From Candidatus Altimarinota bacterium (GTDB lineage: Bacteria; Patescibacteriota; Gracilibacteria; BD1-5; UBA6164), in NCBI GenBank assembly GCA_025210615.1, contig JAOARJ010000013.1, positions 1 to 40,000 of the forward strand: a DNA stretch of 40,000 nucleotides, given 5' to 3'. Each line of letters begins with the position of its first letter. The first letter of the stretch is position 1. Of the stretch, positions 1,822 through 35,400 are shown piece by piece. Made by a program: the position numbers and the translations under genes. The notes beneath the pieces were generated by a model. The model did not search any database. It was given only the letters and a program-made list of their open reading frames with translations, and was not told where the DNA came from.

Positions 1822-2544
1822 ATGAACTTAAAACAAATATTATTAAATGAAACAAAATTATTTTTTAAAAATAATAGTTGGGTATTTTTTATTTTTATAG
1901 TTGCCTTATCGCTTATTGTTTATTATAATACCTGAAATCTGTGGGATATTTTACTTATATTTGTGGCAAATGTTGTATGAGACACCTTGACTATGGTTAT
2001 GAATAGTTGTTATGCTGACAAAAAAGTTAGTGAAGGAAGTTTTCTTTTATTGCTTTCTACTCTTATTTTTACGACAATGTCTTTATATTCGTTTGTTTTT
2101 CAAGGACAAGTTCATTATTTATTGTCAGAATTAGCGTTTTTATTATGATGAATAAAAAGATTTTTAGAAGATACTAAATGAAAAAAAATTAATTATTTTT
2201 GACTTAAAAGTATTTTTATCTTGAATTTTATATCATTGATTATAGTTTGTTATATGGTATTTGTTGATCAAACATTATGATATAGCTCAATAATAATTTT
2301 TATGTGATGATTTTTTACTTCAGTTTTTTTAGTATTAGAAAATTTGAAAATAAAATACTATGGTTCAACTTTTTGACAATTTTTATTTGCTATATGAGCT
2401 TCTATTGCTATTTATCACTGATTATTAAATAAAAATATTATAGGTATGGATTTATCTTGTGCATTATTTTCTTTTACAGTTTTTATTTCTTTTTTGAAAG
2501 ATTGGAATAAATTTAAAGCAATGCCGTTAAAAATAGAAAAATAA
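1822..2544 (+). CDS. Polytopic integral membrane protein, function unknown (240 aa). A PnuC-like transporter is possible but unproven.
   Basis: I checked it codon by codon: open under code 25 from ATG 1822 to TAA 2542-2544. It has multiple hydrophobic segments (e.g. 'WVFFIFIVALSLIVYY', 'FLLLLSTLIFTTMSLYSFVF'). Confidence 0.7.
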
Positions 2545-2612
2545 TTAATTAAAAATTGTATTTTAAATCTTTTTTATTAAAATAAACTTGCTTAAAAAAT
2601 AGAAGAAAAATT

Positions 2613-3668
2613 ATGCAAGAAATATTTTGATTATTCGTTTTATCATTTTGTCTAACTTTTGGATTAATAGAAATATTCAAGAGAATTTTTAAGAAACTAA
2701 ATTTTATAGACAATCCAAAAAAATATTGATACAAAAGAGAACCTGTTCCTTATGGTATGGGAATTATTTTTATTATAAATCTATTAATTCTAGCTTTATT
2801 ATTTATAGAACCTAATGAAAAATTAGGGCTTATTTTATGATTTTGAAGTTTAGTTACTGCTGTGAGTTTTATTGATGATAGAGTAGAAGTTAGCGCAAAA
2901 ATTAGATTATTAATTCAAATTATCATTTGAGCAACAATCGCTATAAATTCAATAAAAATAGGCTATATTAGTAATATTTTTTGATGAATAATTAACCTAG
3001 AAACATATTTTATAGAAATTTTAAATCTAAAAATTTATTTAATTCCTCTGATTTTTACGATAGTATGGTATGTTCTTATTTTTAACGCGATGAATTGGAC
3101 AGATGGCGAAAGATGAATGACGCTTTGAGTTAGTTTTATTTCATATTTTGTCCTATTTATTCTCGCTTTTATGCTCTTTAATACTGATACTTATCAGTGA
3201 TGAATAGAGAATGCTGTTTTTATAATGAAATTGACATCAATTTTAATGTGAAGCGTATTAATATTCTGGTTTTATGAAGTCAAAGAAAAGCTGTTATTAT
3301 GAGATAGTTGAACAATGTTTTTAGGTTTTATGCTCGCAAGTCTTGCAATAATTTCTTGATGAAAAATAGCAACAGTTTTTGCTGTTTTTTGAATCTATTT
3401 AGTAGATGCTTTTTATGTAATAATAAATAGATTAATGCGTAAACAAAATCCTCTAAAATGAGATTTTACACATCTTCATCATAGATTACATAAATTATGA
3501 CTAACAAAATATCAAATTTTATCTATAGTTTATAGTTTAAGTTTAATTTTTTGAATTTCTGCTTTATTTTTAGATAAAACTTGAAAAATCATAGTATTTA
3601 TTATAATAGCTTTATTAGTTGTTTTTATGACGAAAATATTAGAAAAATTTAAAATTAATAAAAAATAA
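2613..3668 (+). CDS. Glycosyltransferase family 4, polyprenyl-phosphate HexNAc-1-phosphate transferase (WecA/TagO/MraY-like, 351 aa)
   Basis: Motifs 'FIDDRVEVSAK', 'NAMNWTDGERG', 'GDSGTMFLGF' and 'THLHHRL' in a multi-TM protein. Open under code 25. Confidence 0.85.
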
Positions 3669-3669
3669 A

Positions 3670-4611
3670 ATGAGAATAGCATTCTTTTGAACACCTCAGT
3701 TTTCTGCTGAAATATTAAAAAAACTTTTAAAAATAGATGATTTAGATATTGCTTTAGTTGTATCACAAACTGATAAACCAATTTGAAGAAAAAAAATTAT
3801 CATGCCTACTCCAGTAAAAGAAGTGGCACTAGACAATAATATAGAAGTTCTTCAACCTACAAAATTAGCTGGTAACACAGAGTTTTTTGATAAGCTTAAT
3901 AGTTTGGATTTAGATTTTATAGTAGTAGTAGCTTATTGAAAGATAGTGCCAACTTGAGTTCTAACAGCAAATAAATATGGACCAATAAATATTCACGGTT
4001 CTATATTGCCGAAATATCGTTGAGCTTCTCCTGTTCAAGAATGTCTACTTAAATGAGATAAAAAGACAGGTTTGACAATAATGTTTATGGATGAAAAAAT
4101 GGACGAATGAGATATACTAGCAATAAAAGAAGTAGACATAGACATAGTAGACACTCAAAAAGAAATCTTTGAAAAATTTGTTGAAATAGGACCGGATTTA
4201 TTAGTAGACACATTAAAAAAAGTGTCTACTTGAGAATTAAAATGACAAAAACAAAACTATGAAGAAGCTACTTATTGCAGTATGATAAAAAAACAAGATT
4301 GACAAATAGATTTTAATTTATCTTCTGAGGAAATTTATAATAAGTTAAGAGCTTATACTCCTTGGCCATGAATTTTTACGCAGTATAAATGAAAAAAATT
4401 TGCGATAGAAAAAGCATTTTTTTGTGAAAATCAGCCTGATAATGCTGAAGTTTGAGATGTTATAAAAACTGTTTCTTGAGAAATTTGAATAGTTTGCTGA
4501 AAATGAGTTTTGACTTTAAAGCAAGTTAAAGTAGAATGAAAAAAATCACAAGATATAAAATCTTTTTTAAACGGTCATAAAGACTTTTTAGATTATAATT
4601 TTAATAAATAA
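3670..4611 (+). CDS. fmt: Methionyl-tRNA formyltransferase (313 aa)
   Basis: 'MRIAFFGTPQFSA', 'VVVAYGKIVP', 'INIHGSILPKYRGASPVQ' and 'TGLTIMFMDEKMDEGDIL'. I checked it codon by codon under code 25. Confidence 0.9.
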
Positions 4612-13893: not shown

Positions 13894-15378
13894 ATGAATT
13901 TATCTCTTAATAGACAATTTTTATTTTGTCTACTATCTTTTTTAATATGAATATTTATTTTTAACATATTTTTTGATTTTTTTGTATCACTTTTTTTGAT
14001 AATATTTTGTCTAATTATTTTATTAAATTATAGTTTATTTTTATGAAAAACTTGATTTAATAAATTTATTTTTTTGTTATTTTTTAGTAGTATTTTTTGA
14101 ATAATTATCTGACAAATAAATTATAATAATATAAATTATAAACAGCTTAAATTAGAGAATATAACTAATAATTATTCTAGTGAAATTAGTTTAGAATTAC
14201 AGATAATAAACACATATAAAAAATATGAAAATTATACCAGCTATATTTGAAAAATAATTACTATAAATAATGAAAAAATTGATAATATAAATTTGCTTAT
14301 TAATTTTTCTCCAAAAGAAAATTTATACCAAAATGATAAAATTATTGTAGACACTAAAGTAGACAAAATTAATAATTTTGTGTCGACTTTTGATTATGAA
14401 AATTTTATGAAATCAAAAAATATTTATGGAAGTTTGAATATCTATTTTTTAGAAAAAGAAAAAATTATAAGATGAAAATCAGGATTTATTTACAAAACTA
14501 GACAAAAAATGTTAGATGCTATGTCTACTATATTTCCTGAACAAGAAGCTAATTTATTGTCTTGAATATTGATTTGAAGTAGACAAAATTTATCAAAAAA
14601 TTTACAAGAAAATTTTAATAATTCATGACTTACTCATATAATAGCAGTTAGTTGATATAATATTACAATAATTATTTTGTTTGTATGAATTTTTATTGTT
14701 TATTTGCCATATTTTTTAAGACCATTTATAGTAGCATTATTTATTATAATTTTTGTTTTATTGGTAGGTTTAGAGCCTCCTGTACTAAGGGCTGCAATAA
14801 TGTGATGAATGTGATTTTTTGTTCTTTTATCAGGAAGAGAAAATAATTCTATAACATTACTTATTTTATCTGCTGCTATTATAGCCTTATTCAACCCATT
14901 TATTTTAAATTTTGATATAAGTTTTTGGTTGAGTTTTTTGTCTGTTTTATGATTAACATTTATTTATCCTCTTATAGAAAATAAGTTTGAAAGATTGCCA
15001 AGATTTATCAGGGATAATTTTTCTCTTGCTATCTCTGCTTTTGTTTTTAATTTGCCAATATTAATTTATTTTTTTTGAGAAATTTCTATTATATTTATCA
15101 TAAGTAATCTATTTGTGTTATTTGCGATTCCTTTTGCAATGTTGTTTTGATTTATGGCTATAATATTAAGTTTTGTTAATATAATTTTATGAAAAATTAT
15201 ATGATTTATAGCTTATTTCTTTTTGCATTATATAATTTTAATGGTGAATTTTTTTGGAGAATTGCCATTTGCTAAAATAAATTTGGATTTTTGATTTCTT
15301 AATATTTATTTTTTAGTTTTATATTATTTAATTATCTGAATATTTTTATTAAATAAAAATAAAAAAACTGCTATTTAG
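13894..15378 (+). CDS. comEC: ComEC/Rec2-family DNA internalisation channel, short form without a C-terminal metallo-beta-lactamase domain (494 aa)
   Basis: 'NNSGLTHIIAVSGYNITII', 'PPVLRAAIMGG' and many TM helices. TAG stop at 15376-15378, inside the terminator stem. Confidence 0.8.
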
Positions 15379-15384
15379 CAGTTT
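15365..15384. terminator. Bidirectional terminator between the convergent comEC and the minus-strand locus
   Basis: A 9-bp perfect stem, 'aaactgcta' tt 'tagcagttt', with an A-run on the left and a T-rich stretch on the right. Confidence 0.65.
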
Positions 15385-15389
15385 CAATT

Positions 15390-16037
15390 TTATGCGCTCA
15401 TTATTGTTTCTGAATCATATGGCCAATCTTTTAATTTTCTCTCACCTTCTGCCGAGGCTACTTTTTGTTCATTATCTCATGTTTGAGATATTGTTTTTCT
15501 TTTCTTTTTTGAAGCTTCTTGTTCTTTGTTTTGTCTTTCATTTATTTGATTCATCAACTTTTTTAGACTTTCAGAAAATTCTTGAGCTTTTTTTCTTTCT
15601 TTTTCATGAGATTTATCAACAGCTTCTCAAGTTTCTTTTGATATTTTTCATTTTCATCAACCTATTCATTTAATAAATTTATTTATTTCTTTTACATTTT
15701 CGGCTATTTCTAGTATAGCTTGTTCTTTTCATTTTTCATCATTTAAATTAAGCCCATTTAATTCTTTAGCACGCTTTTCAATTAGAGTATTAAAAGCTGT
15801 TATTTCATTCTCACTTAATCATCTCTTTTCTAAATTTCATGCAATAGATTTTGCAGCATTGAGAAAAGTTTCTCAAGCACTACCTTTATTATAATTTTCT
15901 TTTATTGCATTCATTTCTTCTGTGTGGAAGTTTGGATCTTTTTCTTTTTTAGGAAAATCTGTTTCAAATGCATTTTTACTTGCTTCTTGTTCTTTTGTTA
16001 GTTCAGTATTATTATTTCCTGTTTCAAGATTTGACAT
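15390..16037 (-). CDS. Soluble Lys/Glu-rich coiled-coil protein (215 aa), last gene of the T4SS-like locus
   Basis: ATG at 16037-16035, TAA at 15392-15390. Open under code 25. No TM segment and no recognised motif. Confidence 0.65.
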
Positions 16038-16107
16038 AATTATATATTATAAAAAAAATAAACTTTGGTATATTCTATCATACTAAAGTTTATTTTGCAA
16101 ATTTTGA

Positions 16108-16554
16108 TTAATAATATACCCAAGGAGCGATTATACTAAGTATTGTTCCTGTTAATAAAAGTAAAATTAATCATAAAATTGTTTGTATAATTCTTCATTT
16201 TGCAGCTTCTTTTGCTCATGAGTCTACTCCAGAAGCAGAAATAGCTATTCAGTTTATAACGATGAATAATACTCAAGTTAGAGCTGCGATAAGTGTTCAA
16301 TATTTTATCATTTTATTTAATACTTCCATAACACTGTTAAATCATTTTTTTATTTCACATTGGTATAATGTAGGATTTTTTTTGGCTGTATCAGACCATT
16401 TTATAGCAGTACAATTCCCTCAAGGGACTTCTTCAGTTGTTTCAACTTTTAAAGTTATTTCTTTATCGGCAGCATAAGTATTATTAGCTGTTATAAGAAA
16501 TAATCACAAAATAATACAGGAAAATAGAATAATTAATTTAATTAAATTTTTCAT
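16108..16554 (-). CDS. TrbC/VirB2-like T4SS pilin (148 aa): signal peptide plus one two-TM hairpin
   Basis: 'MKNLIKLIILFSCIILGLFLITANNTYA' then 'LIAALTGVLFIVINGIAISASGVDSGAKEAAKGRIIQTILGLILLLLTG'. Confidence 0.7.
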
Positions 16555-16564
16555 AATTATAAAA

Positions 16565-17485
16565 TTAGAAATTAATATCAGATAAAATAGAAACACTAGA
16601 GATATAGATTAATATTCAAAGTACAGTGTAAAGAATAATATCTTTTCATTTCTGCATTTTTGAATCATCTCCTCAAGATAATAAATAATAGTATCATCAT
16701 AGAGTTATAAAGAAGAATGCGACAGGCGCTAAGAAATAAGCTCATACTTGCATTAATTGTTGATATAATTTTTCTCAAGCCATTAAATCATTTGCAAATA
16801 CTAAACTCTTGAATCATTCTATAAGTCCTACAAAGAATAATCAGAATAATCAGTAAGAGAATTTGAATTTTCATTCAGTAACATTTTCTTCTTTTCATCT
16901 TGAAGAAATAACTCTTCCTCAAGCTAAAATAAACATAAGTATAGCAGAGGCAAATATTAATACCTCCAAAAAAGTAATAACATTTTCTGAAACAACTGTT
17001 AGGAAATTATCTCATGCTAGTAAACTTATACTTGTTCAATCAGAAAATGTATCAGGATTTGAAGTTAAAGATTTATCTTTGTTATTAGTAACAAATACAT
17101 CTTTTAATAATTCAGGAATATTTATAAATAATAATCAAGTTAAAGCGTAGTATAATTGTTTCTTAGAAGAAGACAACTGTTCTTCATTTGTTCACATTGA
17201 TAATACCATCATAATTCAAGTATATACAAGAAAAATAACTAATACTCACTGTAAAGTCGTTTTTAAAATGGCAATAGCACTACCTCATAAAATGTTAGCA
17301 TTTTCTGTTAAGCTAGCATTATTTAATCCTTCTTTTAACATTGAAACATCTTTTACACTGTCAATTTTATTTAAGCTATCTATTCATACAACTCATTTTT
17401 CATTATTATCATCTCAAGCAGCCAAACAAATACTTCAATAAAAAGCAGTAATAATCGTGATAATGAAAAGTAATATTTTTTTCAT
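16565..17485 (-). CDS. Membrane protein with signal peptide and three pilin-like two-TM hairpin modules (306 aa)
   Basis: I checked every triplet of this frame: no TAA or TAG. Loops are 'SMGTNEEQLSSSKKQLYYALTGL', 'SSRGKEENVTEGKFKFSYGLFGL' and 'LSGGDDSKMQKGKDIILYTVLGI'. Confidence 0.75.
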
Positions 17486-17515
17486 AATTATAAAAATTAA
17501 TTATTATATTTTATT

Positions 17516-18595
17516 TTAAGTCGGTGGTTTTATAACAGGTCATACTTCGCTTGATAAGAAGAATACTGTTATTGTATAACTAGCCGATACTATAAACATT
17601 CAGATAAGGGCATATAGTAACCATTTTTTTCATTTTTCCATATTCTCTTCATTTCATCAAGAGGTTACCATTAATCCTCAAGCATAAATAATTATAATAG
17701 TTACTATTACTAACATAAAAGTATTTCCCCAGTTTATAATGTCAGTTACTATATCTACTCATTCTTTAAAATTAACTTTTCATCTACATCCTCATTCTTT
17801 ACCACAATTAATATCTCAATAAAGGCTTTTTATCATTGCTCAAGATACTTTTACCATAACATATCACATTATAGCGTAGATAACTCAGTCTTTTCATTTT
17901 TTTACTTTATCTTCTTGTCCACGGGCAGTTATTAGTCTGTAAGCTGAATATACCATCATTGCTACAAATCAGAATCAAGTTAGAAATAACATAAATTGAG
18001 CAATAGGATTTATTATGTTTATAAGTAGAACTTCTCATAATTGACCATCTACTTGACCAGCATTTTCTCATACTCAAGGTTTATAAAGATTTACAGCTAC
18101 ACTATAAGCGATTTGCATAACAATAAGTCAGACACTTGTCCATATAACAGTTTTTTTAACATTTTGAAACTCTTCTTCAGAATTTTGTGTGAAAACAAGT
18201 CTTAAAACCATTATAAGCAAATATATAGAAGAGATGATATATACAAGATTTTTCATATCTTTTGCCACGGTTATAAGAAAATTATAAATTCCTCAAGTTC
18301 CAGTAACTTCCTCTTGAACAGTATGAAAACCACTTTTCATCTTTTCAAGAGGCTTAATTTCTCTTTTTGTTCCTTGGGTATTATCTTGACGACCACTGTT
18401 ATCATCTTTTCAACTACCTCAAGTATTTCCAGAAGATTCTTTTCAGCCAGCAGAATTATCTGTTACTATAGTAGGAGAGTTTTCACTTTCATATCATTTA
18501 TATTTATTATCTCTTGTACTGATATCTCAAAAAGCACTTCATATAGACAAGCTAAATATAAAACAGAATGTAATTATTTTTATAAAATTTTTCAT
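17516..18595 (-). CDS. Membrane protein with signal peptide, a Gly/Ser/Asp-rich linker and three pilin-like two-TM hairpin modules (359 aa)
   Basis: Loops are 'FTQNSEEEFQNVKKTVIWTSVGL', 'TARGQEDKVKKGKDGVIYAIMGY' and 'TSGGNEENMEKGKKWLLYALIGM'. Confidence 0.7.
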
Positions 18596-18638
18596 AATTA
18601 TTTTTATTAGAAGAAAAGTATTAATTAATTTGTTATTT

Positions 18639-21368
18639 TTAATTTGTAATTCATAATCTAGCTTCTATTTCCATATCTACATATTTTCTCTTTCTACCAT
18701 ATTTTTTTCTTGAATATTCTTTTAAAATACCCGCTGCTTTTGTGTTCTTATAATTATTATCCCGGATAGTTTTTATATCAAATGGTCTACTCGAAGCATT
18801 ATTTATATTTAGTTTACAATAAGTTGTGAAATTTGCAATACCAATTATATCTTGTTGTGATAAAACTGGAGCATATTCTTTTTCTAAATACTCAGCATCT
18901 TCAGCTCAGACCTTGAAACTCATTATAGTACCAGCATTACCGAATACTGCATCTTTAATAGATGGTTTATCTCATTTTTGAGCTCAAGAAGCATTAATTT
19001 GAGCAATAAATTGGTGAGCCATTATAAGAGCTAAACGATATTTTCTGGCTTCTGATAATATTTCTCAGAAAGTTTCTGTTGCAAAATTTTGGAATTCATC
19101 TACATATAGATAGAAATCTTTTCTTTCATCTTCTGGAATATCAGCTCTACTCATCGCAGCCATATTCATTTTAGATACATAAATCAATCATAATAATTGC
19201 GCATTAAGTGCTCAAATTTTACCTTTAGAAAGATTTACTAATACAATTTTTTCATTATCCATAGCGTGTCTAATATTGAAAGCTGATTTAGGTTGTCCTA
19301 TAATATTACGAATAGTAGTATTAGTAATAAATGGGCCAAATTTTGAACTGAAATAAGGAATCATTTCTTGTTTTTCTCTATCTCAAGTATTAGCATACTC
19401 ATGGTCCCAAAAAGATTTTACTACAGGATTTTGTACTTTTGAAGTTTTATACTTCATAAAAGCATCATCAGTAAACAATCTAGGTACATCAATAAGTGTT
19501 CCTCACTCATCTAAATCTTCCATTAATGTCAAACAACCATTACGGAAATAATGTTGTATACGAGGACCAAAAATTTCATCACCAAATATTTTTATAAAGA
19601 TTTCAGTAGCGTCCATTGCGGCTCTATCCATTTCTCTTTTTCTGGCTTCTGACTCACTAGATATTACCTCAAGCATATTCAGCCCCATAGGTCTATCATC
19701 ATCAGCAGGGTCAAAGACAATTACATCTTTTGCTCTTTCTTTTGGAGTAAAAGCTAGAATATCTTCAACCAAATCACCATGCGGATCAATAACTCATAAA
19801 CCATGTCCAGCCCGTACATCTTGTCTAGCTAAATATCATACAAATACAGATTTTCAACCTCAAGATTTTCAGATAACATAATGGTGTCTACCCCTGTCTT
19901 TTTTATCAAAATAGATAGGAGTTTTTCTACTTCTATATTCATTCCATCACATTAAAACTCAATCTTCATAAGTTTTAAAACCTCAAAGTTCCATATGAAC
20001 TTTTTTCATATTTCAGTTTTTATCTTTTTTTTCTAAAATAATAGGTTTTTTAGGTTGTTTAAGATTATGCGGAGGAGCTAGTTTTTTATATTCTAACCAT
20101 TCAATAATAGGACTTCTATTATAGTTTATATCAGGAAAGTGATACATACTTGATAGCTCATCAATAGAAAAAATTGAAATATTTTGAAACATTCATAAAA
20201 GTCTATATTTATAAGCAAAATATCTAATAGGAGTAAAAATAAATGGCAAAGCATCTTCTATAAGTTGCGGATTATCAAGAGAATTATTATATTCGTCAGC
20301 ATAAATTGTAGCTGCTCAAATAATAGCATGAACTCATTCTTCAGCATTTCTTGAGCTTTTACTTGAACAAATTATTCTAATAGATGTTCTAAATGATAAT
20401 TGCCCAGCAGATTCTCACATTATTTTTTGCGCTTCTACTTCAGCTTGATTAAATATTTTATAAGAATCTCAAGAATTGGCTCAAGGAGCATTATTAGGGT
20501 CTTTTACCATACTATCTGGTCATTGAAAAATGGCTACAATAGGATTCCAAAAAATATCTAAAAATGGAATATTTCTTTTTTTACTATATTCTCATTTCGC
20601 TACTAATCAAGCAGCTCTTTTAGCTTTTTTAGCCCAAGAGCCTGGAGCAGGTTTTATAACAATTTGAAATACTGCTTTGTCATCTTTAGCAAGACCTCAA
20701 AATACATTTGTGAAATTATTTAATCAATCATCTTCCATATATTTATACGTTCTAATAGGGAAAACATCATCATTTTCTTTTCATAAAGAAGCAGCTCTTG
20801 TAGTATATCAATTTGGTTTTAATTTAAATTCTCCTTCTTCAACAAATTCAACTTCAGCATCATTATAAAGCGAAGTTATATGTTGTTGTACTAGATTAGC
20901 ATATTGCTCGTAAGTAGACACATAAAAATGAACTTTTCACATATCGTATACAAGTTCCATACTAACTTTCGCATGATTGAAAAGCAAATTCATAACTGTA
21001 TCATATAATCCCGCTTCAGAAAGTTTATTTACAGCTTTATAAAACATACTCATAATTCAGATTTTTTCTTTGAAGTCCTTTTTTGTTTCTCTTTCTTTGT
21101 CTAATTTTGAATCTGCTTTTGGCAATGTAATTTTCATATAAACTAATTTTTTTGCAGTCCACATTTCAAACATCAAACGCATTGTTTTAACAATCAAAAC
21201 AAGAAGTAAAATAGTTAAAACTATCCCTAAAATAATATAAAGCACATCTCAAATAACTCAATTTAAAATTCATCAAGAAGTTTGAGCAGTTTCAGTTGCA
21301 GCAGTTTGTTTTTCAATTGTTTTATTTGCGTCTAATAAACTAGACATAAATACATTATAAATTTGCAT
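18639..21368 (-). CDS. T4SS ATPase of the FtsK/HerA superfamily, VirD4/TraG/TraD-like coupling protein (909 aa; 902 aa if it starts at ATG 21347)
   Basis: N-terminal TM 'VLYIILGIVLTILLLVLIV'. Walker A 'HYVIGKSGGGKS' at 19848-19874, where three Gly are TGA. 'VIDPHGDL', Walker B 'FYLYVDEFQNF', and the TraG-D_C-like 'ARKYRLALIMAHQFIAQI'. Track fragments 19503-19772 and 21057-21245 are in frame. Confidence 0.88.
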
Positions 21369-21449
21369 AATTTTCTTTAATATTATTTTTATTTGTATAA
21401 GTCTATCATATTTTTTTAAAAAAGCCAATAATTTAGGTTTGACAAATTA

Positions 21450-21490
21450 AAAAAAACTAAAAAAATAAAGAAGTAATAGCAACTTCTTTA
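21450..21490 (-). terminator. Rho-independent terminator after the Kazal-domain gene
   Basis: A 9-bp stem, 21466-21474 with 21482-21490 ('taaagaagt' / 'acttcttta'), followed on the minus strand by a T-run. Confidence 0.65.
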
Positions 21491-21499
21491 TTAAAAATA

Positions 21500-22618
21500 T
21501 TAGTTATTTTCAAAATAAATTTTAGCATTTTTTAAATTAATTTCTTGTAATTCTTTTACTTTTTCTTGAAAAAATTTATTATTTTTAGATAATTTTTTTG
21601 CAAAATCAGCAGGGAAAATAAATCATAAATCTTCATCTTTAAAATTATTTCATCAATCAGGTTTTTTATATCAAATTATTTCATATTTATCATCAGTTAT
21701 CTTAGTTTGCATTAGGATAGGAATAATTGTTTGCACTCAAGTATGAATTCATCACTCCTTATCTTCATAATATTCTTCAGAAACAACTATTACATAATTA
21801 TCAGTAATTCAAGTGTCTTTATTTTCAGTTTTTCAAACTATATTAAAAGCAGTTATTCTAGCTCATCATAAAGCCCTTACTCAAATATTATCTTTAATAT
21901 AATTTATCCTTAGTAAATCAACTTTTTCTTTAGTGTTTTCAGTAATATATTTATTGTTACTTTCATCTTGATTTTCGTCCTTATTTTCTTCTGAAGAATC
22001 AGAATTTTTTTCTGTATTATTAGATGTTTTTTCTTCGTCATCTTCAGCCACTATAACAGTAGTATTCTTATTTTCTTCTTCCAATTTTTTAATTAATTCT
22101 TGTTCTTTTTTTATAAGCTCTTGTTTTCTTTTTTCTAGTTCAGCTTTTTCTTTTTCTTCTGCTTCTTTTTTAGAAATTAAATTATCTCTATATTTTATAA
22201 AAGCATTTGTTACATTTTTTATTTTTTCTTCTGTTATTCTCGCGTCTGGTTTAACTTCTTTGATTTGAGATAATAAATTATTTATAAATTTTATTTTTCT
22301 TTCATAATCAAATTTATAAGTAACAAAATAATTATCTAAAAATATTGTTATTCTAGCTTCATCTTCTGAAATATCTGATTTTTCTGTTAAATCTCAGCTA
22401 GGTTTATCTTCCCCAGAACAACTACCAAAATAATCAGTTTCTACTCAGGCTTCTTTCATATAACAAGAATTTTGATAAGTGATTCAATCTTTCCCGCAGA
22501 CAGGATAATAATTGTTTGTACATAAAGAAGCATTAGTATTATTTATGTTTAATACTCAAAATATTCCTGCTAAAATTAATAAAAAAATTTTATTTTTTAA
22601 TATATTTTTTATAGTCAT
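21500..22618 (-). CDS. Secreted protein with an N-terminal Kazal-type protease-inhibitor-like domain, a KE-rich coiled coil and an acidic low-complexity linker (372 aa)
   Basis: Signal-like 'IFLLILAGIFGVLNINNTNA', then 'LCTNNYYPVCGKDGITYQNSCYMKEAGVETDYFGSC' (the 'PVCG-DG-TY-N-C' Kazal core). Track ORF 21881-22084 is in frame. Confidence 0.78.
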
Positions 22619-22674: not shown

Positions 22675-22700
22675 CAAAAAAAGACTAGAATTTCTAGCCT
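22675..22700 (-). terminator. Rho-independent terminator overlapping the stop of the 812-aa gene
   Basis: The minus strand reads 'aggctagaaattctagtcttttttt'. The TAG stop (22696-22694) lies in the stem. Confidence 0.65.
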
Positions 22701-25132
22701 AATTCTCCTCATACACTGAAAGTATTTGTCATGTCTGTAATATCTTTTCTGTTTTTTGATTCTTCTAGCCACTGCGCGATTATATTTTCATTTATCATTC
22801 AGTCTTCTCTTATTATTCAAGACTTTTGTCATTGTAATATAGTTTGTTCTTTTGTTTTGAATCTTCATTTAAAGAATCTAGTTAGTTGTCAAAAATCTTT
22901 TGAAATACTAATTTCCTCTTCCATATTTAGCATCATTAATATTATTCTTATAAGTTTTTTAGCTTCAGCAGGTTTTACTCAATCACTTAGATTAATATCA
23001 GTTTTTAGGTCTGTCATTGTTCAGATAGTACTCAAAAAAGGTATAAACGGAGATAATCTACATTCTTCAAAAATATCTACAAGGGCCAAGTAAGAAAGAG
23101 CATCAGCTTTAGATTTAAAAGTTTCAGTTTTTCAAGTAGATATAATATTTAATTTAATTTCTCAATTATCTAATTCTTTCCATTTCATTCAAAAATTATC
23201 AGTTTTATTTTTAGCGTCTTCTATTGTAAAGTTTTCTTCAGTAACAGTTTTTCAGTTGATAGTAAATTTTGTCATTCTTTCACCATCTCTTTTTTGACTT
23301 TCTTTTTTGCTTTTTTCTTCTTCTTTTTTTTGCTTTTCACTTTTGTTTTTATCTTCATCTTTTTTAGTGTATTTTATTTCATTTGTGTTTAAAGCTAGTT
23401 CTTGTAATGAATTTGATAAATTACTAAAGAAAGTATTTTCCTCTATTTTAGGCAATAGGGACTCTTTATCATCTAAAATTAATTTTATAATAATAGGAAG
23501 ACCTTTTTCTTGTAAATATAATTGACAATCATCAACTCATTCTTTCCAGTTTGTAAATAAATCAATAAATTTATTATAATCTCAAGGATTTTGAGGTCAT
23601 AAAACACTTTGTAATTTATTTAGAAAGTCGTCAGAATCTTTAGAATTTTCATATAACCAAATCATATAATCTCATAATTCCTCTCAATCAAAAATTGATA
23701 AAGACTTAGAATTCTTTATTTTATTTTCAAATCTTTCATAGTGTTCATCTGTACCTATAATAGCTTCTGCTTCATGTATTTTTTCTTTTACGAAGGAAAG
23801 CGATTTTTGTATAATAGGTGCTGAAACAATTTCATCTACTGCTTTATCAAGTAAATCTTTTGCTCATTCAGCAACATATTCAAGAGGATTTTTTGATTCT
23901 AATGCTTTATTTACAGATTCTTTTACAGAAGAAACAATTTCACTAACTTCTTCAGGAAGATTTTCTACAAACTCCACTGTATCTTCGGCTAGAGAACTAA
24001 CTCCATCAATACTATCAGTTATGAATTCTTGTATATTTTCTCAAGCATTAGATAAATTTGCTTCTAGATTTCCCATTGTTTCTGAGAAAGAAAACATTTC
24101 ATCTAATCTATCTAGAATAATTTCATTATCTGTTCTAGTGTCTGCTAAAATATTATTTTGTAGGGCAAATTCTTGCCAACGGCTTTCAGGAGAAGAACCA
24201 AAAGAATCAAAAAAACTAGAATTTTCTTGTTGCTCTTCTTGTTTTATGAAATCTAAAACTTTTTGTTCAGTATAATCTAAATTATCTTTTTTTTGCTTTA
24301 ATAAATAATCTAGGGCTTCATCTCAAGTTTTATTTTTAATTATATTTTTAAAATTTTTGAATATAGTATAATTAAAACGCCATGAATTTTCATCAGTTTT
24401 ATAGAATCTTTTATCCTTAAGAGCAGCGCTTATTTGAGAAATAAGAGAAGTTAATAAATGCCTTTTAGCAGGAGAGGATGTAAGTTTATTATAAATTTCT
24501 TGTTTTAAGGCTTTAGACTCTTCATCAAATAATTTATTAAGGTCATTAAATTCTTTATTGCCAGAAAATACTTCTAAATCTTCACGAGTAAGTCAGGTTT
24601 CTTGCAATTTTTTTAAATCTTGTATTTCTTGCCTTAGATAAAATAAATTTTCAGAAGTTTTTTCTTTTGATAATTTTAAAAAGTTATTATATGCTTTTTC
24701 TATTTCATCAAATTCTTTATATATTTTGTTTATTTGTTTGGAATTTCATTTGTAAGAGTCTAATAATTTAGAATAAATATTTATTGCAGAATTAAACTCT
24801 TCACCTGCTTCATTAAGTACTTTTTTTTCAGATAAAATTTTTAAATCTCTTATAGTAAACCATTTTTTTTGTAATTTTTTTAGATCTTGAAATTCTTGTT
24901 TTAGGTAAAACAGGTCATCAGGTGTTTTTTCTCTAGATAATACTTTTAAATTATCATATATTTCCTCTATTTCATCAAATTTTTTATATATTCTGTTTAG
25001 TTGTTCAGGTTTTCATTTATAAGCTTCTGTTAATTCAGAATATATGTCAACAGCAGAATTAAAAATATTATCAGCTTCTTGTTCAGGAGAAATATTTTCT
25101 AAAGATACATTTTTGTTTTCTATTACATTCAT
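22694..25132 (-). CDS. Large, predicted cytoplasmic, helical protein of unknown function (812 aa) with an N-terminal 2 x 89-aa tandem repeat
   Basis: ATG at 25132-25130. Open under code 25 to TAG. Track ORFs 25013-25195 and 23252-23455 are in frame. No signal peptide or TM segment seen. Confidence 0.72.
24540..25075 (-). repeat. In-frame tandem duplication, period 267 bp (89 aa), two diverged copies
   Basis: 'tatttcatca' recurs at 24701 and 24968. The protein copies are 'NIFNSAVDIYSELTEAYKGKPEQLNRIYKKFDEIEEIYDNLKVLSREKTPDDLFYLKQEFQDLKKLQ' and 'EEFNSAINIYSKLLDSYKGNSKQINKIYKEFDEIEKAYNNFLKLSKEKTSENLFYLRQEIQDLKKLQ'. Confidence 0.8.
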
Positions 25133-29437: not shown

Positions 29438-32400
29438 ATGCAATTCAAATTTACAAAATTTATAACTGATGATAGGTATAATAAAACTCAAAAAATTATT
29501 TCATTTGCTGTAATTTCAGCGATGTTATTTATGATGTCAGTTAGAGTTCCACTTGAGAAATATTTGATTGAAACTTCATATGCTAGTGATGATACTTTTT
29601 ATAAAGTTGTTTCTATTTTGGTAAATGAAGATATTTATCCTCAAATAGGCGATAAAGTAAAGAGATATGCTAAAGATATTTCTGGGGCTATGGAAAATAC
29701 TAAGACTGTTATTGTTCCTATTCCTAGTGATGCGAAAAGTGAAAAAATAGCTTCTATAAATGAAAAATTTTATTTTGAATGATTACCTGATAAGAGTTTT
29801 AAATCATCTCTTGTATGAACTGTTTTGGTTTGAGATATAAAATTGCCAGTTGTTTATTTGAATTGAAATAGTGAAAAAACAGTTTTACCTTACGCTGATT
29901 TTAAAGATAAATGATTTATTTTTAATAATACTGCTTGAAAATATATTTATAATGCGAGTAATCTTTGAGATATAAAACCTGAAGTTTGGCATTGAATTAT
30001 TTCTCCAAATTCTTGAAGCAGTGAAACAAATATTCAGCAAATAAAAGATTTTTTTGATAAAGATCATGATTTTTATACCTTTAATTGAAATTTTGAAGCG
30101 GCAGATTTAAAATCAAATGAGCCGTATGTATTTTATTTTGATTCCTTAAGAGAACAAGAATCAATAATTTATGAAAAATATAAGTGATACGAAGCTCGTC
30201 AGAAAAATTTAGAAGACCTAATGTATAGGAGATATACTTGAGAACTAGCTGAAAAATTAAAAGAAATTTATAGTGCGACAAGTGAGCAAGAGATAAAAGA
30301 TTTACTTGAAAAATTATCTTGAAAAGAAGTTACAAAAGATGTTGTACAAATGCCGAATACGGATTTTCTTTGAGATGTGAATGCTAGATATATGATAAGC
30401 TCTATGATAAAGCAATATCCTGAAATTTTTAACGATAGCGGGATTTGAGAAATGAGAAATAATGTGGCGAATGCTTGAAGATATAATGCTAGTTTAAAAC
30501 ATATAAATGTAGATTTTGTTTTATCTTTTGTATGAAAACTTGATAAATTGTCTGAAGTTATTTTAAAAGAAGTAGCGACAGATTTGGAAGCGGAAGTGGA
30601 TAAAGCTGTAAAAAATAGTTTGTCTAAAAAAATAGAAATTCCTACAAAAATAAAAAAAGAGATTATTTCTTATAAAATGGTAGGTTCTTGATGAGGAGCT
30701 CCGTGAGCTCCAGTTGTAGCGACGCCTGAAGAAGTAGCGAAAGAAACAAATATTTACACAAATATTTTATATTGAAAGAAAGCTGAAACAATAGAGGAAA
30801 CAAAAGAATGTACTATTTATAGAGGTTCTATGGAAAACTCTGGAAAATTAGTAGAAGCAAATAGATGATATAATGTTCAATTAATTCAAGATGATATTGA
30901 GTTATTGAAAAAAGAAAGTGCTGAAAGATGTTTGAAAGATCCTCCTGAAATAAATGCGCGGTTTGGTTGAACAACCCCTATTAATATAGACCAAGAAAGT
31001 TTTTCTTCTTGAGATATAAAATTAAAAGTGTATGATGTTAAATCTTCTTTGTTGCCTTTATTTTCAATAGAAGGTTCAAAACAAAGCAAAGAAAGCGCTA
31101 AAGTTCCATCTCCAAAAAATTGTTTAGAAAATAATTTCTTATGGACTTATGAAGCCAAAACTGAAAAAGATTGACCAGGGAAACCTCCTAGGAATGTGCC
31201 TTTAAATCAGGATTTTTCAGAGGCTGAAAATTGGGATTGTACTTTTCCTTATACGCCTAAATGACCAGCAGAATATCAAAGTGCTACATACGAATCTGTT
31301 CTAGCAAAGGCAGAATGACAATGTGATATTGAAGTAAAATTAGACTGAGTAACTATAGTTGCTTTAAATCCTTGTTCTATTCCTATTTGATGAATTTGAG
31401 AAGTTACAACAAGGGAAATTGAATATTATGATTTTAAATCAATAAATTCTGAAATGGAGCATAAATCTCCAACAGATGAGGAATTAAAAGCGCAAATTAG
31501 TAACATTGTTTCGCCAGATTTACCAGTTGATAAAGATAGGTATATCGATTTTATTGGCGCGGGAGGTTATCAAAAAATAAAATATCCTTATCCATTTAGA
31601 ATTTGAGTTGGTAAAGATGAATTACTAACAATGAAAAATATTGAAAAAGCTGTTAAAGCAGAATTAGCTGGAGCTTCGGCTTGAGCTTGAGTTGATTTAC
31701 TTAATTTTGTTAGAAATAAAGCGAATAATACTTTCAAAACTTGAACAACTACAAAAGATATTTCATATTATGATACATTTTTATTCGCTGTTTATTGGAA
31801 TAATTTAAAATCTGCAACAGCAAAATATAATTATGTTTTCAGAAGATACTTAAACGATGTAGTTATAAATGATGACAAGTGATGAAGAAATGGAGAAGAG
31901 CTTAGTCTCGCTAATTCTATTATAGATGAGAATTCGCAGGTTGAGAAAAAAGTTCCTTATCCTGGGATAAAAAGATTTTATGAGTCTGCTCATTTAAGCG
32001 CGCCTTGAACAGCTGATAAGATGTTTATAAGTGTTGACCCTGAGGTGAAATGAGTTTCTCCTATTTGAGATATTGAAGCGGCTAATTCTGGTTTAGATAA
32101 TCAAATGGCATCAGCTGCCGCTTGACAAGATGACTCTGGATGAGGTAGTACGAAATGTAGTCCTCCTGAATGAGTACCTATTCGGGAATGGCTTCCTGCT
32201 GTTTTTTGTCGGTTGGCGGAAGTAATGGATACGGCTTGAGCGATTATGGAAAGTGATTGTTGTGGTCCTTCTGTTTTTTGAGAAGACACAGAAGATTTAT
32301 GATTTGATGAAGCAGAAAAAATTGCTAAGTATGACCAAACATTATGATGAAGAATTCCTGAAGGAACTTGCTGACAAGATGCTAATGATAATTGAATAAA

Positions 32401-35400
32401 AGATTGCATTGAAAAGTCAGATGAAATTTATATAGCTTGAGATGAAACTGGATTATATAACTCAGTTATTGAATATAAAGTTGCTAATAAATTTAAATGA
32501 GTTAGTAATGTAAATGATAACAAGACAAGTATTTCTCTTGAAATTCAAAAAATAGAAGTATCGAAAGATGAAACAAAACCATTGTCAGATACAAATAAAA
32601 AACTTGTTTATAAAAAATGAGATGATGAGAAAATTATTTCTACTTATGTGACTTTACCAAAGCCTTTAGTTGTAAAAGATTGAAGAACTAAAATAAATCT
32701 TATTACTCAAAATAGTGAAGCTTATGTTTATTTAAAAGCAAAAGCTACTTTATACGCGGATGCTTGAAAAGCTGATGTAATAAATTATTCAGATGAAAAG
32801 AGATTAGCTATTTCTTGAACAAAATTAAGATTATATTCTCAAAAAATATCTAGTATAGAATGATTAGTTTTATCGAGTACTTCTGATAAAGCTTTAGTTT
32901 CTGATAAGAAAAATTTATTCTTATATGATAAAAATGAATACAGAGTTAATGATAATAGAGATGCTATAAATGCTTTTTCATTAGCTGAGGATAAATTATT
33001 AATTTGAATTTCAAATATAAAAGACACTTGAGGAGAAATAAGTGTAAATTATCCAATTAAATTAAATATTTTAGATAAAAATGATGAAAAAGTAAACGAA
33101 AGAGATATTATAATTAAAGATGGACAAATTGATACTCCTGTGTCATTAGGTTCTATTTCTAAGGCTGGAAATTATAAAATTCAAATAGAAGATAATAGAT
33201 GATTTACTGAAGTTAAAGATATAACTTTTGCTCCTGATAAAGTGGACCATATTACGACAGTTTCAGCGACAAGTGTTATAGAAGCTGGTTGAGTAGAGAT
33301 TTCGGATATTGTAGAACTTCGTGATAAATATAATAATATAGCGGCGGGGACATTATATGATTTAGAGCTTGAAATTGTTTGAGATTCTATAACTTTTGGT
33401 GATAATACAAAAACTAAAAAAATTAGTCTTATAGAATGACTAAAAGCGTTAGATATAAAATCTACTAATATTTCATGAACTTCAAAAATTATTTATAAAA
33501 TAAAATGAACAGAGGAAAATTGATTTGATATAACTGAATCTTGAAAAGATATTAGAGTTGAAAAAGAAATAAAAGTTGTAGAGCATATTGATTATGAAAT
33601 AGAATTTCCTGATGATATGGAAGTATGAAACAATACTTATAGTTATAAAGTGAAGATAAATACGGCTGATGATTTTAATAGTGTTTGATTTACTTATTTA
33701 GATAAGATTTATTGAACAGCGCCTGAAGCATTTAGAATAGAAAATTCTGTTTGAGAAGGAACTTTTACGACTACAAATATAGCGAAAGAAGATGTTGTTA
33801 TTCAATTTAAGGTTGCTTGAATTAAAAAAATTATAGAAAAAAGAATAACAATAAAACCTCTTAAGCCTTTGAAACTAGATTTTGTTTTAGAAAAATCTAG
33901 ATTAAGTGCTGATTTAGAAGATAAAACTAAAGTTTATGTAACGCTTAGAGATGTATTTTGAAATGCAGTATTTACAGATAATAGAACACAAGTAGTTTTA
34001 TCTATTTATCCTGATTATCAAAGTATTTTAAAGACAGATGTAGAAAGAAAAGTTGTTACTAATTGAAAAGCTCAATTTGAATTAAAATCTACAAATATTC
34101 CGTGACTAGCTTTCTTTAGATTATCAACTTCATCTAATAATCTTTCTTTTAATTCTTATGAATATAAATGAAAAGATTGAGAAACTAAGACGATTTTATG
34201 AGTTTGAGAAAATGCTTGACATATAAAGAGTGGGTATTTTTGGACTGCTGACAAAATAATGGCAGGGAATTATAATTCTTTATATTCAACCCTTATTTGA
34301 GCGAATTATTGAGATATAAGTCAACAAGATTATTTAGCGTCTTGAATAATTTTTGATAAGGATAATAAATGACTTGCTGTTACGACTCTTTTAAATAATC
34401 CAAGAGATTATCCAGAAGTATTTTCTGTTTCTCCTTATTGAAATTTAGAAGTGTCTGACACTCCTGATTTAACTCAAAACATTGAGAAAGATTTATATTA
34501 TGGAGAAGGGCAAATAACAAAGATAAATTTATTTAATTCTGGATTAAATAAATATGTTTGAGAAGTTGTTTATAATTTTGATCATGCGACTTTAAAAGAA
34601 TGTAATATATTAGACGAAGAGAATTGTTATAATTTAACAGACAAAGACAAAAAAGATTATATTTATTATAAATGATTTAATAATCATAAGTTTGTTCGTG
34701 ATGGAGATAAAATAGTGCTTAGAAATTTTGTTGATGCTGATATTGTTTCTATAAATTGAAATTGACAAATTTTTGATGTAGCGAAATATTATACTATAGC
34801 GATTTCAGGAGAAAATGATAGCGAAAATTTAATGCTAGATGTTTTAGATAAATCTTGAACTGTTCTTTGAAAAATAGTTTTTTCTAATTACTGAAGCATA
34901 AAATTATCAAGACAAAAAGAATATATTAGAACGAAATGAGAAGTTATAATTTATCTTGATTCTACTGATTATGGAGCTATCAAAAAATATTATTGAGTTG
35001 ATAACGAAGATAAAACTTGATTAGCTGTTCGGTATAATGATGCATTTGGTTCTGATAATTCTACAAATAGTTTTGCAAAATTATATTTGAATTGACATGA
35101 AGATATAGAAAATGATTGAACAGGCTGGAAAGATGAAAATAAAATAATGCTAGCTTACGCAAATGGGCAATCTGTTTGAGAGGCGACAAAAAATTATGCT
35201 AGTTTTTCTATGGTGAATATTTGAGATCCTGTTGTAAGTTTATCTAGATTTAAAGCTGATTCTATAACAAGAGTTAAAGGAAAAAGTACTAGCACAAGAT
35301 CTTTTGACTCAACAATTTGAAAACTACTGGAAGATAATATAGATATTATTTCTTATGATAGTTTTGATTATAATCATGATAATTATGAGGATATTGTTAT

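Follow-up and report, generated by a model that had tools for sequence, protein, structure and literature searches.

Can a single coupling-protein-type ATPase and three pilin-type genes, with no other component of a type IV secretion system (T4SS) beside them, be a machine in their own right? The question is raised by a locus in a 40-kb stretch of Gracilibacteria DNA (positions 1 to 40,000 of contig JAOARJ010000013.1, hereafter the window), which a first reading from the sequence alone had described as a minimal T4SS-like operon of five genes, driven by a single coupling protein and matching no described architecture. Five co-directional genes on the minus strand, running from 21368 down to 15390 with successive gaps of 43, 30, 10 and 70 bp, were indeed found when the window was translated with genetic code 25, and they had the sizes first given (Table 1). 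In our reading, the locus is probably a vertically inherited chromosomal operon of a Gracilibacteria subclade, which codes for a single module of the Patescibacteria-type T4SS rather than for a minimal machine of a new kind. The Patescibacteria systems derive from monoderm conjugation machinery, lack a relaxase and have been repurposed. The claim of an undescribed architecture is not supported, since relaxase-less chromosomal T4SSs with VirB2-like arrays and VirD4-like proteins are known from Patescibacteria (PMC12102498, PMC12857230).

The ATPase at the head of the locus was identical to NCBI MCT4617441.1, which comes from a 204,724-bp contig of a Gracilibacteria metagenome-assembled genome. 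In Pfam scans, residues 491-831 matched T4SS-DNA_transf (PF02534) with an E-value of 1.9e-10 (40.6 bits against a cut-off of 20.1). DUF87 also scored above its cut-off, TrwB_AAD_bind reached 20.7 against 20.5 bits, and TraG-D_C fell just below its cut-off. A single N-terminal transmembrane (TM) helix was located at about residues 38-65 (31-71 by hydropathy, 35-72 for the helix of the model). Between this anchor and the motor, at about residues 73-440, lies an alpha/beta domain of ~370 aa, DUF8128 (PF26449, from the precomputed Pfam annotation), which was present in all homologues; an anchor set apart from the motor in this way is atypical of coupling proteins. The first reading had overlooked this domain, and our literature search found no paper on it. 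The motor carries a Walker A motif (GKSGGGKS, residues 500-507) and a Walker B motif (YLYVDEFQNF, residues 753-762), separated by an all-alpha insertion at ~573-704. K506, D757 and E758 were invariant across 33 diverse homologues, and the basic/acidic C-terminal helices were conserved.

When a profile of these 33 sequences was compared with the PDB, good E-values were obtained only for coupling proteins (TrwB, 1e-6; DotL, 4e-5), and neither VirB4 nor FtsK was among the matches. An AlphaFold2 (AF2) model built on the same diverse alignment had a predicted local distance difference test score (pLDDT) of 84 and a predicted TM-score (pTM) of 0.76; an earlier model built on 39 close homologues had a pLDDT of 48 and was discarded. 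Foldseek aligned the C-terminal half of the model with TrwB over ~430 columns, with target TM-scores of 0.64-0.67 and a root-mean-square deviation (rmsd) of 4.7-5.0 Å. The TM-score for Cag-beta was 0.53, and HerA and DndH were also among the matches. R388 VirB4 (TrwK) could be aligned over the full length but poorly, with TM-scores of 0.24-0.31 and an rmsd of ~16 Å. Judged from the Pfam, PDB-profile and AF2/Foldseek matches, the ATPase is a single-pass, VirD4/TrwB-type coupling protein with an extra, cytoplasmic and uncharacterised domain and intact catalytic motifs, as the first reading had proposed for its type. As a class, coupling proteins are motors that depend on DNA and are related to FtsK and HerA; no relaxase family with which this one could couple was found in the Pfam scans of the window.

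Other origins of the ATPase were considered and rejected. Assignment to the VirB4/TraC/CagE type failed in the Pfam scan, where CagE_TrbE_VirB, AAA_10 and P-loop_TraG were all without a match, whereas a true Gracilibacteria VirB4 used for comparison matched P-loop_TraG at 3.5e-25 and AAA_10 at 1e-10. Nor was there detectable homology between DUF8128 and the N-domain of Gracilibacteria VirB4 (hhalign probability 0.1%). The protein is not of the FtsK/SpoIIIE type, with no match to PF01580 at E≤0.1, a single TM helix, and no FtsK among the PDB-profile matches or the top 50 Foldseek matches. For an origin in a defence system, PADLOC gave only weak P-loop matches (mad8, HerA). A phage origin was rejected after searches of cultured phages, plasmids and IMG/VR contigs, which recovered relatives of the C-terminal motor half only. 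Residues 103-901 matched the uncharacterised phrog_5156 of PHROGs over its full length (E=6.4e-76); this family may stem from CPR (Candidate Phyla Radiation) prophages or misassigned contigs.

The window has a G+C content of 26.6%. With the standard code (table 11), open reading frames (ORFs) of at least 100 aa summed to 914 aa, and with code 25 to 14,328 aa. The ATPase gene alone has 37 in-frame TGA codons, and those that are conserved align with invariant or nearly invariant glycines of code-11 homologues. Among them are the codons for the Walker A glycines G500, G503 and G505, each an invariant glycine in the code-11 proteins. Because conserved in-frame TGA codons of the ATPase fall on invariant or nearly invariant glycines, UGA is glycine, not tryptophan, in the window genes. 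Public JGI protein records of the closest related locus (L083) were 85% (ATPase) and 47% (359-aa protein) identical to the window proteins by BLASTP, and our own code-25 translations of the same DNA were 88% and 56% identical. One aligned homologue had tryptophan at invariant glycine positions of the ATPase. Some database proteins of code-25 organisms probably carry the wrong residue at UGA.

The three genes that follow the ATPase encode membrane proteins that all scored above the 26.6-bit cut-off of T4SS_pilin (PF18895), in agreement with the pilin modules of the sequence-only reading. The 148-aa protein reached 27.2 bits (4e-6), the 306-aa protein 52.6 bits (4.9e-14, two stretches) and the 359-aa protein 60.7 bits (1.5e-16, three stretches). 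With a custom hidden Markov model (HMM) of the module, three domains were found in the 359-aa protein (1e-16 to 5e-19) and three in the 306-aa protein (2e-16 to 4e-14); together with the module alignment this corrects the earlier count of two hairpins in the latter. Each of the proteins begins with a signal peptide, which is followed by one hairpin in the 148-aa protein and by three in each of the others. All seven hairpins could be aligned, with pairwise identities of 19-26%. They share a loop between the two TM helices, S-x-G-D/N-E-E...K-x-K. In a set of 72 modules drawn from related loci, conservation was highest in this loop and at one glycine of the second helix.

The 148-aa protein fits a canonical pilin precursor of ~100-150 aa, with its signal peptide and single hairpin, and gave a weak NCBIfam match to the pilin-like Mbov_0395 family of a Mycoplasma integrative and conjugative element (8e-4, below cut-off). 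The larger two could be mistaken for VirB6/TrbL. This candidate was rejected, since neither protein matched VirB6/TrbL in Pfam at E≤0.1 and their six TM helices are three pilin-module repeats. The 306- and 359-aa proteins are covalent triples of the VirB2-fold hairpin, predicted to be exported by Sec. They may be pilus subunits, the nucleus or base of polymerisation, or a substitute for VirB6.

No further part of a secretion system was found in the window. Pfam scans of the window ORFs that were not obviously housekeeping gave no VirB4, VirB6, VirB8-11, relaxase, transglycosylase or integrase family, and a phmmer search with Gracilibacteria VirB4 against all six-frame ORFs of the 40 kb gave no VirB4-like ORF, in line with what had first been read from the sequence. 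The window is ordinary chromosome that carries glyA, fmt, fusA, rny, efp, lgt, comEC and dnaE. Because the flanks are housekeeping genes and the window has no relaxase or integrase, the locus is not a mobile element. In its seven modules on three neighbouring PF18895 genes, its lack of a relaxase or integrase and its housekeeping flanks, the locus agrees with a Patescibacteria-type T4SS. The idea that a coupling protein and pilins have survived from a decayed integrated conjugative element draws on the descent of the component families from conjugation systems and on the plasmid and viral-contig relatives of the C-terminal ATPase half. It is nevertheless very improbable and effectively refuted, since the window also has no repeats or tRNA-type boundary, all four genes from the ATPase to the 148-aa pilin (hereafter the cassette) are undamaged, purifying selection acts more strongly on the ATPase than on DnaE, and the cassette has been retained in different species despite differing neighbouring genes.

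The ATPase belongs to a very large family, with 19,389 clusters (50% identity) at E≤1e-3 and 4,972 at E≤1e-30, many of them 800-860-aa proteins that match in both halves. Full-length homologues were found in Gracilibacteria, Peregrinibacteria, Saccharibacteria and Paceibacterota, and also in Uhr-, Magasanik-, Doudna-, Berkel-, Staskawicz-, Portnoy-, Levy- and Buchananbacteria. The sequence-only reading had supposed a machine specific to code-25 CPR bacteria. This applies to the gene order, which is confined to a code-25 subclade, but not to the ATPase family, which extends over essentially all Patescibacteria classes.

We defined the code-25 subclade of the window by an ATPase at least 69% identical, which gave 10 informative loci including the window. 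The cassette order is ATPase, a triple-module protein of ~310-360 aa, a triple-module protein of ~300 aa and a single pilin of ~75-155 aa. It was complete in the window, L001, L002, L003, L021, L083, L086 and L087, and with L004, which has the two triples only, the cassette was counted in 9 of the 10 loci. Positional orthologues of the 359-aa protein occur in 8 related loci, and those of the 306-aa protein likewise in related loci. The genes around the cassette differ from locus to locus and are housekeeping genes throughout. Compared with L002, identity was 73% for the ATPase, 61% for DnaE and 36-48% for the pilin-module proteins. Compared with L086, it was 75% for the ATPase, 58% for Lgt, 43% for ComEC and 35-51% for the pilin-module proteins. 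Such a pattern would be expected of a conserved motor with surface-exposed, fast-evolving parts. Another code-25 genome (L041) has a 334-aa triple-module pilin gene (851-1855) 15 bp upstream of a distant ATPase paralogue (1871-4291; 35% identity, ~810 aa), an independent linkage of ATPase and pilin. In L021, three extra single-module pilins (119, 128 and 133 aa; 14915-16076, minus strand) follow directly after the cassette on the opposite strand, making seven pilin-family genes in a row.

The partner of the ATPase was indicated by a sister clade of Gracilibacteria. There, an ATPase of the same domain build, 59-64% identical to that of the window, heads an operon of ATPase, SpoIIE-type phosphatase and VirB4 in 7/7 loci (L005, L006, L008, L084, L085, L102 and L103). 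The VirB4 of these operons has 640-690 aa and the P-loop_TraG and AAA_10 signatures. Matches of at least 59% identity occurred in one copy per assembly, and orthology is therefore favoured over paralogy. The most economical reading is that the ATPase, VirB4 and VirB2-like genes would encode one apparatus whose genes are distributed differently by lineage, because one and the same ATPase orthologue is accompanied by VirB4 in one clade and by VirB2-like genes in a second one. By the same comparison, the window ATPase most likely works with a VirB4 encoded elsewhere in the genome, because its orthologue shares an operon with VirB4 in the sister clade. The phosphatase, a membrane-anchored protein of ~400 aa of the PP2C/SpoIIE type, always lies between the DUF8128 ATPase and VirB4 (e.g. 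L084 8777-9988; observed in L005, L006, L084, L085, L102 and L103), which suggests phospho-regulation of the T4SS ATPases in that clade.

The sister clade also bears on the minimal machine of the first reading, in which the DUF8128 coupling ATPase alone would extract and polymerise the VirB2-like proteins or drive translocation, without VirB4 or VirB6. The four-gene operon is tight and conserved, no other T4SS gene lies within 10-19 kb, and VirB6 is undetectable in Gracilibacteria (PMC12102498). DUF8128 could supply functions that normally come from the N-domain of VirB4, and over its full length the ATPase could be aligned collinearly, though weakly, with VirB4 in both hhalign and Foldseek. 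We nonetheless hold such autonomy to be quite unlikely. The sister-clade orthologue is co-operonic with a bona fide VirB4 without any change in domain architecture, the hhalign comparison gave the two N-terminal domains next to no probability of homology, VirB4 is common in Gracilibacteria (7,971 matches) and highly conserved there, and the ATPase occurs without neighbouring pilins in ~70 other CPR loci. A pilin linkage in other CPR classes was looked for and rejected: the custom HMM found pilin-module ORFs in 2/71 code-11 loci (L033 and L057), and when ten hairpin-like neighbours within 5 kb were scanned with Pfam, T4SS_pilin was matched only by the L033 protein.

A survey of Patescibacteria T4SSs from 2025 places these observations in context. 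VirB4 was found in 2,417/3,035 genomes and formed its own clade within class FATA of the mating-pair formation systems (MPF-FATA). Of 5,713 coupling-protein homologues in 2,918 genomes, 148 were near virB4; there were 441 VirB2-like arrays, and relaxases were near-absent (109 in 3,035 genomes). Components were especially dispersed in Gracilibacteria. The survey covered the neighbourhoods of virB4, not those of coupling proteins (PMC12102498).

Several observations weigh against a coupling protein that belongs to a VirB4-driven T4SS. VirB4 was absent not only from the 40-kb window but also from up to 10 kb around the cassette in every clade member that was examined, and the contig of the window was not among the best 120 of the 7,971 VirB4 matches. 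One subclade locus, L007 (73% identity), has no pilin genes downstream of the ATPase, and in many CPR outside Gracilibacteria the neighbour of the ATPase gene is DnaX, without any T4SS gene close by. Coupling proteins are commoner than VirB4 (2,918 against 2,417 of the 3,035 genomes), and a homologue of the T4SS coupling protein is non-essential in S. epibionticum (PMC12102498, citing Wang 2023). Model T4SSs can assemble a pilus without their coupling protein, which even suppresses piliation (PMC13463995), and because of this the position of a coupling protein at the head of a pilin operon is not explained by canonical logic. The near-universality of the ATPase family, its extreme conservation and its frequent DnaX/DnaE neighbourhood make a VirB4-independent core role, possibly in nucleic-acid handling, possible.

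The same observations are the strength of an explanation in which the ATPase is a housekeeping nucleic-acid translocase, either with the segregation role of FtsK or as an uptake motor, and its place beside pilin genes is regulatory or accidental. The family is near-universal in Patescibacteria (PMC12102498) and the ATPase is better conserved than DnaE. In many classes DnaX is a neighbour of its gene, DnaE lies near it in the window and in L002, and the kinship of coupling proteins with FtsK and HerA agrees with the HerA and DndH matches in Foldseek. Even so, we regard this explanation as unlikely, since FtsK_SpoIIIE was absent from the Pfam matches just as FtsK was from the PDB-profile matches and the top 50 Foldseek matches, the all-alpha insertion typical of VirD4/TrwB is present, and a VirB4 link in one clade together with two independent VirB2-like linkages can hardly be due to chance. 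In many code-11 CPR classes, a conserved ~200-aa protein lies between the ATPase and DnaX (L038, L040, L043, L044, L048, L049, L055 and L057; e.g. L038 12522-14666). It has the motif EGVFDGQ-M-G-DG--Y-VP-NYASKSKLVEGD-LKL and matched no Pfam family.

If the locus encodes a module of a Patescibacteria-type T4SS, the hairpin loops would face the cytoplasm, by VirB2 topology, and a hexamer of the ATPase would sit at the cytoplasmic face. The pilin-fold proteins would form the membrane-embedded base, the extracellular tube, or both, of a VirB2-type filament or conduit, to be assembled by a VirB4 ATPase encoded elsewhere, as in other Gracilibacteria with dispersed T4SS genes. The apparatus would then serve contact-dependent exchange with a host cell, not conjugation. 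Reviews describe the T4SS genes and the pilin array of S. epibionticum as essential (PMC12857230, PMC11665869), and comEC is dispensable there for growth (PMC12857230). A 2026 preprint proposed that T4SS-like tubes penetrate the host in RNA parasitism, and tubular structures in another patescibacterium have been proposed to be T4SS pili (bioRxiv 10.64898/2026.06.21.733656). A rather improbable further reading is that the DUF8128 ATPase is the near-universal motor of an import conduit, which pulls host RNA, DNA or other macromolecules through a VirB2-type tube, with the two triple-hairpin proteins, derived from the pilin module by triplication, in place of VirB6 as platform or channel in Gracilibacteria. 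Were that so, a coupling protein and a pilin-derived channel would form a functional core unseen in characterised T4SSs, which may act without VirB4.

For the essential T4SS of Patescibacteria, effector delivery, uptake of host material and uptake of host RNA have been proposed as roles. The locus refines the system that was described in 2023-2025 and does not overturn current views. Given its genomic ties to VirB4 as well as to VirB2-like genes, the DUF8128 coupling ATPase probably belongs to the core of the machine and is not a stray relic of conjugation, and the triple-hairpin proteins are candidates for the missing VirB6-like platform of Gracilibacteria. As far as we could find, three things are undescribed, namely the operon of coupling ATPase and pilins, the conserved 3+3+1 modules with covalent triple hairpins, and the DUF8128 domain. 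From the sequence comparisons, DUF8128 is a pan-CPR feature, on an ATPase that is better conserved than the replicative polymerase DnaE and ranks with the best-conserved proteins of its genomes.

The features of the locus are listed in Table 1. The 11-mer TATGATAGA[AC]T has only two copies in the 40 kb (both strands), each 31-34 nt upstream of a start codon of the locus. It probably acts as an extended -10 promoter, and the hairpin and T8 behind the 148-aa gene as a terminator. Because of the promoter-like element, the hairpin with T8 and the synteny, we infer a four-gene operon and a separately transcribed fifth gene. This departs from the five-gene operon first described, in that four genes are conserved in the clade and the fifth has its own promoter-like element and recurs only in L083. 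The 215-aa protein of this fifth gene is 31% Lys+Glu, has no TM helix and matched no Pfam or NCBIfam family; its counterpart in L083 is 38% identical, and none was present beside the cassette in the other loci. The start of the 148-aa pilin was taken as the ATG at 16554, which gives a normal signal peptide and a 10-bp gap. Its longest ORF starts with GTG at 16596, has 162 aa and would share 32 bp with the end of the 306-aa gene. No Shine-Dalgarno sequence was seen in the window, and AATT abuts the ATG in 12/23 window genes, including all five of the locus, within 8 nt upstream of the start (e.g. 21369-21376, 18596-18603, 17486-17493, 16555-16562 and 16038-16045).

Table 1. Genes and predicted transcription signals of the locus (window positions)
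Feature	Position	Strand	Basis
909-aa membrane-anchored ATPase	18639..21368	-	Pfam, PDB profile search, AF2, Foldseek
359-aa protein: signal peptide, ~85-aa low-complexity exposed region, three VirB2-like TM hairpins (6 TM)	17516..18595	-	Pfam, TM scan, module HMM
306-aa protein: signal peptide and three VirB2-like TM hairpins (6 TM)	16565..17485	-	Pfam, custom module HMM
148-aa single-module pilin: signal peptide, two-Cys exposed segment, one TM hairpin	16108..16554	-	Pfam, TM scan
215-aa Lys/Glu-rich soluble protein; peripheral or doubtful member	15390..16037	-	no TM, no family match
Promoter-like extended -10 element TATGATAGACT, 31 nt upstream of ATPase start	21400..21410	-	motif search
AT-rich hairpin (-8.7 kcal/mol) then T8, 3' of 148-aa gene	16046..16093	-	ViennaRNA fold
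Second promoter-like element TATGATAGAAT, 34 nt upstream of 215-aa gene; overlaps AT-rich hairpin region	16072-16082	-	motif search
Bidirectional hairpin terminator between convergent ComEC gene and 215-aa gene (-9.7 kcal/mol)	15364..15385	.	terminator scan of both strands, fold
Putative terminator: hairpin (-9.7 kcal/mol) and T-run ending Kazal gene, insulating ATPase operon	21455..21499	-	ViennaRNA fold

Around the cassette, the closest relative L083 (ATPase 88% identical) is alone in also keeping the Kazal gene, the 215-aa counterpart and the convergent ComEC gene. A functional link to ComEC was rejected, as the adjacency is kept only in L083 and is absent elsewhere; in L086, MutL, L19 and an amidase come before ComEC, at a distance of 5 kb. 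We read both the 215-aa gene and the neighbourhood of ComEC as local accidents of gene order, outside the machine. The Kazal gene (21500-22618, minus strand), directly upstream of the ATPase, encodes a secreted protein of 372 aa in which an N-terminal serine-protease-inhibitor domain of the Kazal type (5.8e-8) precedes a charged region, and its counterpart in L083 is 63% identical and in the same position. Bacterial Kazal domains are unusual. Farther upstream is an 812-aa acidic protein (22694-25132, minus strand), the N-terminus of which contains two copies of a ~110-aa repeat (…IYSELTEAYKGKPEQLNRIYKKFDEIEEIYDNLKVLSREKT…); it matched no family, and its counterpart in L083 is only partial and 33% identical. 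An ORF of at least 3,521 aa (29438-40000, plus strand) runs beyond the end of the window, with 197 in-frame UGA codons, an N-terminal hydrophobic segment and no Pfam match. Relatives have similar giant ORFs close to the cassette (4,341 aa in L087 and >1,193 aa in L086).

Compared with the coupling proteins VirD4, TrwB, TraD and Cag-beta, the window ATPase has the P-loop nucleotide-binding domain, the inserted all-alpha domain and the N-terminal membrane anchor in common. It differs in the additional ~370 aa of DUF8128, in one TM helix instead of two, and in having no relaxase or relaxosome partner. It is only ~15% identical in sequence to TrwB, and the NCBIfam TraD/VirD4 models scored far below their cut-offs. 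With VirB2/TrbC pilins and the Mbov_0395 family, the pilin-module proteins share the signal peptide, the TM hairpin and the charged loop between its helices. In size, the 148-aa protein is typical, whereas the 306- and 359-aa proteins join three hairpins per chain; the host here is a monoderm, and polymerisation into a pilus is putative. VirB6/TrbL proteins are likewise polytopic, with at least five TM helices, and encoded beside pilin genes, a likeness that is functional speculation only.

Among DNA-import systems, ComB of H. pylori is also a reduced T4SS-derived set of an ATPase with VirB2-like or polytopic membrane proteins, and it acts in uptake. ComEC adjoins the locus in the window, an adjacency not kept beyond the closest relative. 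ComB is driven by the VirB4-type ATPase ComB4, whereas the window locus has a coupling protein. The archaeal Ced and Ted systems are reduced T4SS-derived sets for DNA import as well, in which CedB is a VirB4-type ATPase. The closest likeness in composition is to the Patescibacteria T4SSs of Ca. Southlakia epibionticum ML1 and Nanosynbacter TM7x, which are chromosomal and relaxase-less and have a VirD4-like protein and a divergent PF18895 array, as found here. The coupling-protein gene of those systems mostly lies apart from virB4, and in Gracilibacteria the parts are dispersed. Here, VirB4, VirB3, TrsD, VirB6 and VirB8 are absent from the 40-kb window, the pilin operon begins with the coupling protein, and two of its three pilin proteins are fusions of three hairpins, in contrast to the separate small genes of the known systems.

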